From Escherichia phage ECP1: a stretch of 40,469 nt of DNA. Both the position numbers and the translations under genes were made by a program. The notes beneath the pieces are model-generated. The model saw nothing but the letters and a program-made list of their open reading frames with translations, ran no database searches and had not been told where the DNA came from. Where the stretch lies: the sequence record KY979108, one strand, 5' to 3'. Every line of letters starts with the position of its first letter. The stretch's first letter is position 1. Of this stretch, positions 5,032 through 39,595 are shown in pieces.

Positions 5032-5216
5032 ACGCCACAATTCAAACGATACCAGAGCTTCTTATCCAGACACGAGGCAATCAGACCGAAGTGGCGAGGA
5101 TGCTTTCCTGCGCAAGAGGAACAGTGCTCAAGTACAACCGAGACAGCAAAGGCGAGCGTCATGTAATAGTTAACGGCGTCCTGATGGTCAAACAGGGCAA
5201 GAGGGGAAGACGATGA
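5028..5216 (+). CDS. ninH: NinH-like protein
   Basis: 62 aa with GNQTEVARMLSCARGTV HTH-like motif as in lambda NinH. Confidence 0.7.
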   Translation: MNATIQTIPELLIQTRGNQTEVARMLSCARGTVLKYNRDSKGERHVIVNGVLMVKQGKRGRR

Positions 5217-5836
5217 GACTCGAAAGCGTAGCTAAATTTCATTCGCCAAAAAGCCCGATGATGAGCGACTCACCACGGGCTACGGCTTCTGACTCTCTTT
5301 CCGGTACTGATGTGATGGCTGCTATGGGGATGGCGCAATCACAAGCCGGATTCGGAATGGCTGCATTCTGCGGTAAGCATGAACTCAGCCAGAACGACAA
5401 ACAAAAGGCTATCAACTATCTGATGCAATTTGCACACAAGGTATCGGGGAAATACCGTGGCGTTGCAAAGCTTGAAGGAAATACTAAGGCAAAGGTACTG
5501 CAAGTGCTCGCAACATTCGCTTATGCGGATTATTGCCGTAGTGCCGCGACGCCGGGCGCAAGATGCAGAGATTGCCACGGTACAGGCCGTGCGGTTGATA
5601 TTGCCAAAACAGAGCTGTGGGGGAGAGTTGTTGAGAAAGAATGCGGAAGATGCAAAGGTGTCGGCTATTCAAGAATGCCAGCAAGTGCAGCATATCGCGC
5701 TGTGACGATGCTAATCCCAAACCTTACCCAACCCACCTGGTCACGCACTGTTAAGCCGCTGTATGACGCTCTGGTGGTGCAATGCCACAAGGAAGAGTCA
5801 ATCGCAGACAACATTTTGAACGCGGTCACACGTTAG
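5213..5836 (+). CDS. Q: Late-gene antiterminator Q
   Basis: Position immediately upstream of PR' and the lysis cassette; zinc-finger-like CRDCHGTG...CGRCKG motif. Confidence 0.75.
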   Translation: MRLESVAKFHSPKSPMMSDSPRATASDSLSGTDVMAAMGMAQSQAGFGMAAFCGKHELSQNDKQKAINYLMQFAHKVSGKYRGVAKLEGNTKAKVLQVLATFAYADYCRSAATPGARCRDCHGTGRAVDIAKTELWGRVVEKECGRCKGVGYSRMPASAAYRAVTMLIPNLTQPTWSRTVKPLYDALVVQCHKEESIADNILNAVTR

Positions 5837-5878
5837 CAGCATGATTGCAACGGATGGCAACATATTAACGGCACAATA

Positions 5879-5907
5879 TTGACTTATTGAATAAAGTTGG
5901 GTAAATT
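5879..5907 (+). promoter_or_regulatory. Late promoter PR' (-35 TTGACT, 17-bp spacer, -10 TAAATT) with adjacent qut region
   Basis: Near-identical to the lambda PR' sequence as remembered. Confidence 0.75.
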
Positions 5908-5942
5908 TGACTCAACGATGGATAAATGCACTCGTTAAATAA

Positions 5943-5976
5943 AGCCCTGAGTTAATAGCTCGGGGCTTTTTGCGTT
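5943..5976 (+). terminator. tR'-like terminator closing a short leader RNA
   Basis: 9-bp stem (AGCCCTGAG/CTCGGGGCT) followed by TTTTT. Confidence 0.65.
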
Positions 5977-6269
5977 TTAATCACGACCTTTCTGAAAGCA
6001 CATCAAACCAAATACCAGACAGACAAAAATAATCACCTTATCCGCTGTGGCTACGGTGCGGTGTGCTTTGCATAAAAGAAAACCAGCGCAATGGCTGGCT
6101 TCGTGAAAGCGGGTGGCAAGAGGTTGCGCTAACAACCTCCTGCCGTTTTGCCCGTGCATATCGGTCACGAACAAATCTGATTACTAAACACAGTAGCCTG
6201 GATTTGTTCTATCAGTAACCGACCATATTCCTAATTAAATAGAGCAAATCCCCTTATTGGGGGTAAGAC

Positions 6270-6593
6270 ATGAAGATGCCAGAAAAAAATGACCTGTTAG
6301 CCGCCATTCTCGCGGCAAAGGAACAAGGCATCGGGGCAATCCTTGCGTTTGCAATGGCGTACCTTCGCGGCAGATATAATGGCGGTGCGTTTACAAAAAC
6401 AGTAATCGACGCAACGATGTGCGCCATTATCGCCTGGTTCATTCGTGACCTTCTCGGCTTCGCCGGACTAAGTAGCAATCTCGCTTATATAACGAGCGTG
6501 TTTATCGGCTACATCGGTACTGACTCGATTGGTTCGCTTATCAAACGCTTCGCTGCTAAAAAAGCCGGAGTAGAAGATGGTGGAAATCAATAA
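6270..6593 (+). CDS. S: Class I holin S with dual-start motif (Met1-Lys2-Met3)
   Basis: 107 aa, near-identical to lambda S as remembered. Confidence 0.9.
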
Positions 6594-7053
6594 TCAACGT
6601 AAGGCGTTCCTCGATATGCTGGCATGGTCAGAGGGAACTGATAACGGACGTCAGAAAACCAGAAATCATGGTTATGACGTCATTGTAGGAGGAGAGCTAT
6701 TCACTGATTACTCCGATCACCCTCGCAAACTTGTCACGCTAAACCCCAAACTCAAATCAACAGCCGCCGGACGCTACCAGCTTCTTTCCCGTTGGTGGGA
6801 TGCCTACCGTAAGCAGCTTGGCCTGAAAGACTTCTCTCCGAAAAGCCAGGACGCTGTGGCATTGCAGCAGATTAAGGAGCGTGGCGCTTTGCCGATGATT
6901 GATCGTGGTGATATTCGTCAGGCAATTGACCGTTGCAGCAATATCTGGGCTTCACTGCCGGGCGCTGGTTATGGTCAGTTCGAGCATAAGGCTGACAGCC
7001 TGATTGCAAAATTCAAAGAGGCTGGCGGAACGGTCAGAGAGATTGAGGTATGA
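6577..7053 (+). CDS. R: Endolysin R (lytic transglycosylase)
   Basis: 158 aa, near-identical to lambda R as remembered. Confidence 0.9.
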
Positions 7054-7487
7054 GCAGAGTCACCGCGATTATCTCCGCTCTGGTTATCTGCATCATCGTC
7101 TGTCTGTCATGGGCTGTTAATCATTACCGTGATAACGCCATTACCTATAAAGAGCAGCGCGATAAGGCCACATCCACAATCGCTGACATGCAGAAGCGTC
7201 AACGTGATGTAGCAGAACTCGACGCCAGATACACAAAGGAGCTTGCTGATGCTAACGCGACTATCGAAAGTCTCCGTGCTGATGTTTCTGCTGGGCGTAA
7301 GCGCCTGCAAGTCGCCGCCACCTGTGCAAAGTCAACGACCGGAGCCAGCGGCATGGGCGATGGAGAAAGCCCAGGACTTACAGCAGATGCTGAACTCAAT
7401 TATTACCGTCTCCGAAGTGGAATCGACAGGATAACCGCGCAGGTTAACTACCTGCAGGAGTACATCAGGACTCAGTGCCTGAAATAA
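7050..7487 (+). CDS. Rz: Spanin inner-membrane subunit Rz
   Basis: N-terminal TM segment, follows R with overlapping start. Confidence 0.85.
7243..7434 (+). CDS. Rz1: Spanin outer-membrane lipoprotein Rz1, embedded in Rz in the +1 frame
   Basis: Signal peptide with lipobox (LLGVSAC) and proline-rich mature region, fully inside Rz. Confidence 0.75.
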
Positions 7488-7688: not shown

Positions 7689-8186
7689 ATGAAATCATTA
7701 ACCCTCTTCAATCAACCAATTCGTATCGGTGAAGATGGCATGATCTGCCTCACTGATATGTGGAAAGCCAGTGGTAAAAGTGAATCTGAATCGCCTTACC
7801 ACTACCTGCGAAACAAGCAGACCAAAGAGTTCTTAGCCGAGCTGGAGAAAAACCACGAATCTGTGGTTTTTACTGAGCGCGGTGTACACGGTGGAACATA
7901 TGGCGGGAAGTTTGTTGCTTACGATTATGCGGCTTGGTTAAACCCCGGGTTCAAGTACGCGGCCTATAAAGTCCTCGATGACTACTTCACCGGAGAACTT
8001 CAGCATCGCAACAGCTTAAGTGCGCAGCTCAACATGAAATGTCATGAGTTTGACCAGAAGAAAGACATGGCGAGCTTCTGCGGACAAGGGCTGGCAGCAT
8101 GGCGCTATACGAAGCCAGTGTTGGTCGCTGAGATTAACTCCCTGGCTAACCAGCTGCAGATTACGATCCCCGGGCTTCCGGGATGA
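7689..8186 (+). CDS. KilA-N domain protein
   Basis: N-terminal region resembles KilA-N DNA-binding domain pattern. Confidence 0.5.
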   Translation: MKSLTLFNQPIRIGEDGMICLTDMWKASGKSESESPYHYLRNKQTKEFLAELEKNHESVVFTERGVHGGTYGGKFVAYDYAAWLNPGFKYAAYKVLDDYFTGELQHRNSLSAQLNMKCHEFDQKKDMASFCGQGLAAWRYTKPVLVAEINSLANQLQITIPGLPG

Positions 8187-8613: not shown

Positions 8614-9090
8614 ATGCAACGCTTCGTTGAGTCAATCAGAAGGTCTCTACAAACTCAAAATTGGTTTGCTGCAATTTTTATGGCACTAGCTATGCCAGAT
8701 ATTTGTGGGGCTTTGGAAGATCCAGATGCAAATGTCGGAGAAAGGTATAGGGATTGGTTTGCTAGGTATTTAGCACCGAAGTATACGCGTCGCTATGTAC
8801 AGTTTACGGCTCAGGACTGTTACAAATTTCGATGCAAGTGTTTGCATCAGGGATTGGCTGTTCGAGATAATAACGAAAAGTTTTCTTTGACTCCGCCGAT
8901 TCCGCCACATCAATTTCATTTAAACTCATATGATGGCGTAATTCAGTTACAAATCGATCTTCTTTGCGAGGATATATGCTTAGCTGTTGAGGAGTGGGCT
9001 AGAGATGTTGAGGATAACAATGAAGTGCAAAATCGCATATTAGAACTAATCAATATTCATTTCCCTCAAGGGTTTATAGAGTTTCGTTGA
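8614..9090 (+). CDS. Moron-encoded hypothetical protein (158 aa)
   Basis: Distinctly AT-rich ORF relative to flanks, with its own upstream promoter-like region and downstream terminator; no recognisable family. Confidence 0.55.
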   Translation: MQRFVESIRRSLQTQNWFAAIFMALAMPDICGALEDPDANVGERYRDWFARYLAPKYTRRYVQFTAQDCYKFRCKCLHQGLAVRDNNEKFSLTPPIPPHQFHLNSYDGVIQLQIDLLCEDICLAVEEWARDVEDNNEVQNRILELINIHFPQGFIEFR

Positions 9091-38953: not shown

Positions 38954-39595
38954 TCAGGAGAATTTCATCATCATCTGCACTGCTACGCCGATTATCTTGC
39001 AGTTGCCGTCGATTGGGATCAACGGATAGGCAGGGTTAAGCCCTTTCAGGTATTTGTTACCGCCATCAATGATTAGCTTCTTGAACGTGGCTTCATTAGC
39101 ATCTGTCAGCTTCGCAACTACCAGGCTTCCATTAACGGCTTCCTTTCCAGTGTCGAACAGAACCAGCATACCCTCAGGAACGCTAAGGCCGGTAGGAGCT
39201 GTCATTGAGTCGCCCTGAACCCTGAGCCAGAAGGCGTCACCGACAACGTGACAATCTGATTCATACCACTCATCCACTGCCTGAGGGTTGTACGGCTCTA
39301 CGGCCTCACTCCATGCACCTGCGCTAACCCAGCTAATCAACGGAAACTTTTCCCCTGGCTTGTATTGTCCCTGATAGTTGTCGCCAAAAAGCAGTTCTGC
39401 CGGAGCGACACCCAAAGCTTTAGCTATTACCTCTGCGTCATCAACACTAACGCTTCTGGTTCCTGATTCATAGTTGCCGATCCGAGATTGTGAAGCCCAG
39501 CCGCAAAGCTCCGCAAGAGCCTTCTGTGTAAGCCCTTTATCTTCCCGTAATCGCTTGATACGCGCGGCGATAGTTTCTGTTCTGTTCATGCGCAT
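38954..39595 (-). CDS. cI: CI-type repressor (HTH-XRE N-terminus, S24 LexA-like autocleavage C-terminus)
   Basis: HTH motif (LTQKALAELCGWASQSRIGNYESG), likely Ala-Gly cleavage site (SAGAW), catalytic Ser (GDSM) and Lys (VVAKL). Confidence 0.9.
   Translation of the reverse strand: MRMNRTETIAARIKRLREDKGLTQKALAELCGWASQSRIGNYESGTRSVSVDDAEVIAKALGVAPAELLFGDNYQGQYKPGEKFPLISWVSAGAWSEAVEPYNPQAVDEWYESDCHVVGDAFWLRVQGDSMTAPTGLSVPEGMLVLFDTGKEAVNGSLVVAKLTDANEATFKKLIIDGGNKYLKGLNPAYPLIPIDGNCKIIGVAVQMMMKFS

Follow-up and report, generated by a model that had tools for sequence, protein, structure and literature searches.

The dual-start motif and its control region in the S lysis gene of Escherichia phage ECP1

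The lysis cassette and genome of ECP1

The window analysed here is a stretch of 40,469 nucleotides of Escherichia phage ECP1 (sequence record KY979108), and all positions given below refer to it. A lysis cassette is encoded on its plus strand. The first gene in this region, 5213..5836, specifies a Q late-gene antiterminator of 207 aa (Pfam PF03589 Antiterm, 6e-58). It is followed by a predicted pR'-type late promoter at 5879..5907, found by a consensus scan, with the hexamers TTGACT and TAAATT separated by 17 nt; the homologous site of phage HK544 is annotated as pR'/qut. Just 3' of this promoter lies a strong predicted intrinsic terminator (5941..5975), which consists of a 13-bp stem and a T-run and would be the equivalent of tR', with a sequence unlike that of lambda. 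The S gene occupies 6270..6593 and overlaps by 17 nt the R gene (6577..7053), in the geometry seen at lambda 45493-45509. R encodes a lambda-type transglycosylase endolysin that has no match in Pfam or NCBIfam, and its identity rests on the 156 of 158 residues (99%) that it shares with lambda R. The i-spanin gene Rz follows at 7050..7487 as a diverged allele (PF03245, 8.3e-36; 59% identical to lambda Rz), and the o-spanin lipoprotein gene Rz1 is embedded in its +1 frame at 7249..7434 (PF06085 Rz1, 2.4e-20; lipobox LLGVSAC), where translation would begin at the ATG at 7249 that follows AGGAG. The order Q, pR', terminator, S, R, Rz/Rz1 is that of lambda. With Q, pR' and the terminator upstream, and R and Rz/Rz1 downstream, S opens the late operon, as it does in lambda. 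Two minus-strand open reading frames that overlap S (6254-6478 and 6235-6354) were dismissed as being without support.

At the DNA level, the cassette is a mosaic with respect to lambda. Positions 5203-5936 are 96.6% identical to lambda 43875-44609, and positions 6099-7298 are 93.3% identical to lambda 45015-46235. Between these segments, the 405 nt of lambda 44610-45014 have been swapped for 162 unrelated nucleotides (5937-6098) that bring their own terminator. The replaced part of lambda spans most of the 6S RNA, tR' and orf-64. In ECP1 the terminator at 5941-5975 comes only about 30 nt after the predicted start of the late transcript, so that a terminated late leader would be far shorter than the 6S RNA of lambda. 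This short replacement layout between pR' and S is common to HK544, HK022 and HK97. A second mosaic junction lies inside Rz, where DNA similarity to lambda stops near position 7298: S and R are 97-99% identical to their lambda counterparts and Rz 59%, and the embedded Rz1 is an allele unlike that of lambda, as its lipobox illustrates.

In DNA sequence, the Q-S-R-Rz region shares 96-97.5% identity with those of HK544, mEpX2, HK542, HK022 and HK97. For the first 25 kb of the window, the closest phage is mEp506, with 80% covered at 98% identity. Other genes of the window code for an integrase, a CI repressor, CII, a DnaB-type helicase, a Rad52-type recombinase, an HK97-type small terminase and tail proteins. 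This gene content and these relatives suggest that the window represents a complete-looking genome of an HK97/HK022-like lambdoid phage. Scans of the complete window gave no Rfam match at gathering thresholds and, with ARAGORN, no tRNA or tmRNA.

Several features lie beyond the cassette. A gene for a protein with KilA-N and ORF11CD3 domains is found 3' of Rz (7689-8186), at the place that bor, on the opposite strand, occupies in lambda. A 158-aa open reading frame at 8614-9090 (MQRFVESIRR...) is without a Pfam match and matches only phrog_18591, a group of unknown function. Just ahead of the small terminase gene, which starts at 12600, positions 9282-12212 encode an HNH endonuclease (186 aa), proteins of 486 aa and 196 aa, and a gp74-like HNH endonuclease. 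The 486-aa and 196-aa proteins fall in PHROGs labelled glycosyl-/glucosyltransferase (phrog_1579 and phrog_854); in Pfam, the former has only a sub-threshold GT2 match and the latter none. Phages LMessi and ENT39118 share this block, which may be a moron or a module for modification.

The S gene and the control elements around its start

The open reading frame of S encodes 107 aa and is headed by ATGAAGATG at 6270-6278, which reads ATG-AAG-ATG and specifies Met1-Lys2-Met3. Two in-frame AUGs are therefore separated by a single basic codon, and they would give rise, within a common frame and with a common stop, to S107 (the antiholin) from 6270 and S105 (the holin) from 6276. Taken by itself, the motif is within chance expectation: for both strands of a sequence of this size and composition, about 0.66 occurrences of ATGAARATG are expected, and one was seen. 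Moreover, 2 of the 111 six-frame ATG-initiated open reading frames of at least 60 aa begin with M[K/R]M. The second of them, at 39595..38954 on the minus strand, encodes a CI-type repressor (HTH and S24 peptidase) that starts Met-Arg-Met (MRMN...), and the tripeptide by itself proves nothing. Consequently, the case for a dual start rests on the identity of the gene, on its surroundings and on conservation.

The S protein is identical to lambda S at 104 of 107 positions (97%), the only differences being H7N, D63G and R105G. Its full length matches Pfam PF05106 (Phage_holin_3_1, 'lysis protein S'; 1.4e-29), with 102.9 bits where 23.8 are required. The NCBIfam equivalog TIGR01594 'phage holin, lambda family' is matched over model positions 1-107, at 122.9 bits for a cut-off of 55.05. 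By these profile matches, which exceed the curated cut-offs, S is a lambda-family class I holin gene. The holins of HK75 and mEp234, and that of one IMG/VR contig, are 100% identical to it. A search of PDB sequences with S yielded no solved holin structure; its sole matches, designed 'SAKe' proteins, were judged compositional, with no stretch passing by itself. The N-terminal charge pattern matches that of lambda S, the change at residue 7 being neutral, and the C-terminal tail is that of lambda apart from R105G, which takes away one positive charge. The charge of the cytoplasmic C-terminal tail of lambda S affects lysis timing. A crude Kyte-Doolittle scan clearly flagged only residues 20-34 and 44-67 of the ECP1 protein; the established topology of lambda S comprises three transmembrane domains in an N-out/C-in arrangement (PMC6116005).

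In lambda, four elements split initiation between Met1 and Met3 in a ratio of 1:2 that favours the holin, as mapped by Blasi, Chang, Young and colleagues and summarised in bioRxiv 10.1101/2025.05.14.654169. According to the same source, a GGGGG just upstream of nt -7 serves Met1, the unusual UAAG at -6..-3 serves Met3, a stem-loop at -21..-7 governs access to the GGGGG, and a second stem-loop lies within the gene at +31..+47. All four elements are present in the window and are identical to those of lambda base for base. The upstream sdi stem-loop, UCCCC-UUAUU-GGGGG, is located at 6249..6263 (nt -21..-7), and RNAfold adds an A-U pair that extends it to 6248-6264. Its 3' arm, at about 6259..6263, is the GGGGG that would act as Shine-Dalgarno sequence for Met1, in the role assigned to it in lambda (bioRxiv 10.1101/2025.05.14.654169). 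The UAAG, presumed atypical Shine-Dalgarno sequence for Met3, follows at 6264..6267, and the intragenic stem-loop GCCGC-CAUUCUC-GCGGC is found at 6300..6316 (nt +31..+47), both with roles taken from the same work on lambda. The sdi hairpin has a predicted energy of -9.7 kcal/mol, with pair probabilities of 0.7-0.9 in the -60..+90 context and an unpaired probability of at most 0.04 for the GGGGG; for the intragenic hairpin these values are -9.1 kcal/mol and pair probabilities of at least 0.99. The fold of the entire 96-nt region has a z-score of only -1.13, which indicates that the two hairpins are local features and not parts of a globally unusual fold.

Over nt -170..+324, the only positions at which the window and lambda disagree are -151, -145, -51, -45, +19, +30, +188 and +313. 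The changes at +19, +188 and +313 result in H7N, D63G and R105G, respectively, the last being synonymous in R, and the G-to-A change at +30 is synonymous and lies one base outside the downstream stem. All the differences near the start (-51, -45, +19 and +30) thus fall outside the four control elements. The preliminary description of this locus had stated that S starts with Met-Lys-Met in a lambda-like manner and had named the sdi stem-loop as the element to look for upstream; its coordinates for the motif prove exact, since ATGAAGATG opens the 107-aa open reading frame of a lambda-family holin, and the stem-loop is there at 6249-6263 in a form base-identical to that of lambda.

Conservation of the dual start and of the leader hairpin

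Among close relatives from IMG/VR, ATGAAGATG is kept in 80 of 80 loci, while other positions of the same 135-nt segment vary. Residue 7 is one of those that vary, with H7 in 49 and N7 in 31 of the 80, so that both are common alleles. Some close relatives possess another leader and loop (CCCCUUCUGGGGG), for which RNAfold still predicts a hairpin. The reference S of HK97 (NC_002167; locus L084, 401-445) is three single bases short in codons 7-10 compared with both the window and lambda, giving MKMPEKMTVAAIL and a protein one residue shorter, and the 5' arm of its hairpin has one C fewer. This difference could be a real, compensated frameshift patch or could reflect errors of early sequencing.

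To look further afield, we used ten distant loci obtained by tblastn of a phage collection, a retrieval that is independent of the N-terminus. Six of the ten, from P22-type, Aeromonas and Pseudomonas phages, begin with Met-Lys(-Lys)-Met, and holins with only 31-44% protein identity retain Met-Lys-Met. The form with two lysines, Met-Lys-Lys-Met, occurs in P22 and g341c, and Met-Lys-Met in the Pseudomonas phages BR161c, phi2 and OQ658367 and in the Aeromonas phage pAEv1818 (ATG-AAA-ATG at 401-409 of locus L086), where a CCCC/GGGG hairpin lies upstream. The pAEv1818 record starts the holin at Met3 (position 407 of the locus) despite the ATG-AAA-ATG and the hairpin, and its annotation therefore misses the dual start. 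Other N-termini depart from this scheme. The holin of Pseudomonas phage SC_8_H2H8_2017 begins Met-Ser-Asn-Met-Pro (L192, 392-403), without a basic residue between the two methionines, and is still preceded by a CUCCC/GGGAG hairpin. That of Synechococcus phage Yong-L1-251 (L193, 308-340) begins MNSRRKEKRT-MP, a strongly basic extension of ten residues ahead of Met-Pro. These two N-termini are possible alternative antiholin designs. The holins of APSE-1 and APSE-2 have a single start methionine.

We then asked how widely the leader hairpin is shared. A first scan of viral contigs returned only relatives with at least 97% identity and was useless for covariation. The test was made on 185 loci, which gave 54 distinct 35-nt leaders, by hairpin-anchored enumeration with a shuffle control. 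Of the 54 leaders, 43 carry a hairpin with 4 bp or more and a 3' arm that stops 2-12 nt ahead of Met1, versus 16% of the shuffles, and 37 carry one at -6 kcal/mol or lower, versus 5.4%. Seven of the 11 leaders missed by the enumeration have bulged hairpins that RNAfold detects. These counts do not represent independent events, because the leaders are related by descent and part of them was retrieved via N-terminal seeds: the scans made with the Pseudomonas and Aeromonas holins relied in part on N-terminal peptides as seeds, and were used for hairpin sequences and not for the frequency of the motif.

The arms of the hairpin vary from clade to clade yet remain paired, as CCCC/GGGG, CCUCAC/GUGAGG, GCCUC/GAGGC, CUCCC/GGGAG or UCGCU/AGCGA. 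Such differing but complementary arms fit the pattern expected under selection on RNA structure and not on sequence alone. For 15 representative leaders aligned with MAFFT, RNAalifold gave no consensus structure; since the hairpins end 5-12 nt from Met1, the AUG-anchored alignment put them out of register, and the outcome does not count against the structure.

Two probable S products and the timing of lysis

In lambda, S105, made from Met3, is a holin with three transmembrane domains; the charge at the N-terminus of S107, made from Met1, blocks the insertion of segment 1, and S107 dimerises with S105 and inhibits it, until the membrane potential is lost, whereupon S107 inserts and takes part in forming holes (PMC6116005, PMC9636201, PMC3369941, PMC3359269). 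A lambda phage with S105 only lyses 5-10 min earlier (PMC6116005). The ECP1 gene is very probably this same lysis-timing gene, lambda S, in an HK97/HK022-like lambdoid phage, with its dual-start control region intact. The reading of the preliminary description, a holin and an antiholin from two starts, agrees with our data. That both S107 and S105 would be made by ECP1 is a conclusion as strong as sequence allows, given that the four lambda control elements are identical and that the protein shares 97% of its residues with lambda S. The sequence, its context and its conservation are observed here; the two products, their S107:S105 ratio and their opposing roles are inferred by analogy with lambda.

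On this model, late transcripts would begin at pR' and pass the terminator with the help of Q, and ribosomes on the late mRNA would start either at Met1 (6270) or at Met3 (6276). Initiation at Met1 would require the GGGGG, which is expected to be held in the 3' arm of the sdi hairpin, and starts at Met1 should for this reason be the minority, while initiation at Met3 would use the adjacent UAAG. The intragenic hairpin at +31..+47 would help to set the split, which in lambda amounts to about one S107 for two S105. S105, the presumed holin, would gather in the inner membrane until, at a fixed moment, it opens very large holes through which the R endolysin is released. The extra Met-Lys of S107 would add a positive charge that prevents membrane entry of the first transmembrane segment, and S107 would combine with S105 into inactive dimers, thereby delaying triggering. 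Once the membrane potential collapses, S107 would itself become an active holin, which would make lysis abrupt.

A variation within this explanation, and compatible with it, is that the motif is retained while its output is unlike that of lambda: the leader allele (C at -51 and A at -45), the residue changes, or both would shift S translation or the S107:S105 ratio, so that timing is tuned differently. When the lambda leader is folded over -60..+12, a 12-bp long-range helix forms between -46..-35 and -14..-3, at -12.4 kcal/mol versus -9.7 kcal/mol for sdi alone, and is predicted to bury both Shine-Dalgarno sequences. In the window, the T-to-A change at -45 breaks this helix. The predicted probability that the UAAG is unpaired is then 0.94-0.99, versus 0.05 in lambda, and for sdi pairing the predicted probabilities are 0.9 (window) and 0.58 (lambda). 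The alleles at 6219/6225 (nt -51/-45) are a natural polymorphism, with the C,A of the window as a minority (10 of 66 close loci) and the T,T of lambda in 53 of 66; R105G, by which a C-terminal positive charge is lost, is a further point in favour of this variation. However, the long-range helix is a thermodynamic prediction only, published work on lambda backs the local sdi hairpin and not this helix (bioRxiv 10.1101/2025.05.14.654169), and the helix is absent from P22-type and alternative leaders, with no sign of conservation. In addition, well-behaved phages such as HK022 have the same S protein and the same leader, and this protein is the natural allele of HK022 and its relatives. As the helix is not conserved in the other leader types, we consider a real effect on timing unlikely.

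A vestigial motif, of which a single AUG is used and no antiholin results, is far less probable still. Nothing specific to the window speaks for it, and its plausibility comes from phages that manage without the motif, namely APSE-1 and APSE-2 with their single methionine and the one Pseudomonas phage with Met-Ser-Asn-Met and no lysine. Against it, the two Shine-Dalgarno sequences and the two hairpins match, base for base, those of lambda, where both starts are used, and ATGAAGATG is invariant in all 80 close relatives while neighbouring positions vary. Finally, the idea that Met-Lys-Met is a chance N-terminus of no regulatory meaning could draw on the expected frequency of the 9-mer and on the Met-Arg-Met of the CI repressor, but it is effectively refuted by the conservation data, as the motif is kept in holins with as little as 31% protein identity, along with a hairpin that covers the Shine-Dalgarno sequence and co-varies, and lambda genetics also argues against it (PMC6116005, bioRxiv 10.1101/2025.05.14.654169, PMC3369941).

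The intact lambda-type dual start, which is the reading we retain, can be set beside the known systems. The ECP1 gene shares with lambda S its 107 codons, Met1-Lys2-Met3, the sdi hairpin, the GGGGG, the UAAG, the hairpin at +31..+47, the position in the operon and the 17-nt overlap with R, and is unlike it in H7N, D63G and R105G, in the leader changes at -51, -45, -145 and -151, and in a shorter Q-to-S spacer with another terminator. The S genes of HK022, HK75 and mEp234, and the near-identical genes of HK544, mEpX1/X2, HK97 and Sf101, show no difference of substance from that of the window. Gene 13 of P22 belongs to the same holin family (89% identity) and likewise has two in-frame starts with basic residues between them, as well as a hairpin over the Shine-Dalgarno sequence of Met1 followed by the same UAAGAC before the AUG. 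In contrast to the window, it starts Met1-Lys-Lys-Met4, with two lysine codons, and its hairpin pairs CCUCAC with GUGAGG in place of CCCC/GGGG. Nam, Blasi, Zagotta and Young reportedly described in 1990 that the dual start is conserved in P22. The S21 gene of phage 21 (S21-71 antiholin and S21-68 pinholin), where a positively charged N-terminal extension makes the longer product an inhibitor (PMC9636201, PMC6116005), follows the same dual-start logic. However, S21 is unrelated, a class II pinholin that has two transmembrane domains and works with a SAR endolysin, whereas the S of the window is of class I, with three such domains by analogy with lambda, and is paired with a soluble lambda-type R.

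A broader proposal combines two ideas: that the hairpin sequestering the Shine-Dalgarno sequence of Met1 and Met-Lys-Met form an ancient module spanning the whole of PF05106, kept up through compensatory change in phages of Pseudomonas, Aeromonas and enterobacteria beyond lambda and P22, and that alleles such as -51C/-45A tune access to the Shine-Dalgarno sequence of Met3 by breaking a competing helix. We regard the two together as a tentative and rather improbable conjecture. If tuning by leader alleles were true, different lysis clocks could be run with nearly one protein.

Public records already label homologous genes 'holin/anti-holin' (in RefSeq, for the HK022-type group), 'anti-holin' or 'dual start motif', and the dual-start S of the window is an ordinary, textbook and already annotated feature. 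It should be annotated with both an antiholin starting at 6270 and a holin starting at 6276, like lambda S in RefSeq, and the ECP1 lysis cassette can be expected to behave in a lambda-like manner. Beyond correct annotation the finding is of little importance; the covariation of the hairpin across distant members of the family extends the published work on lambda and P22 and overturns nothing in it.
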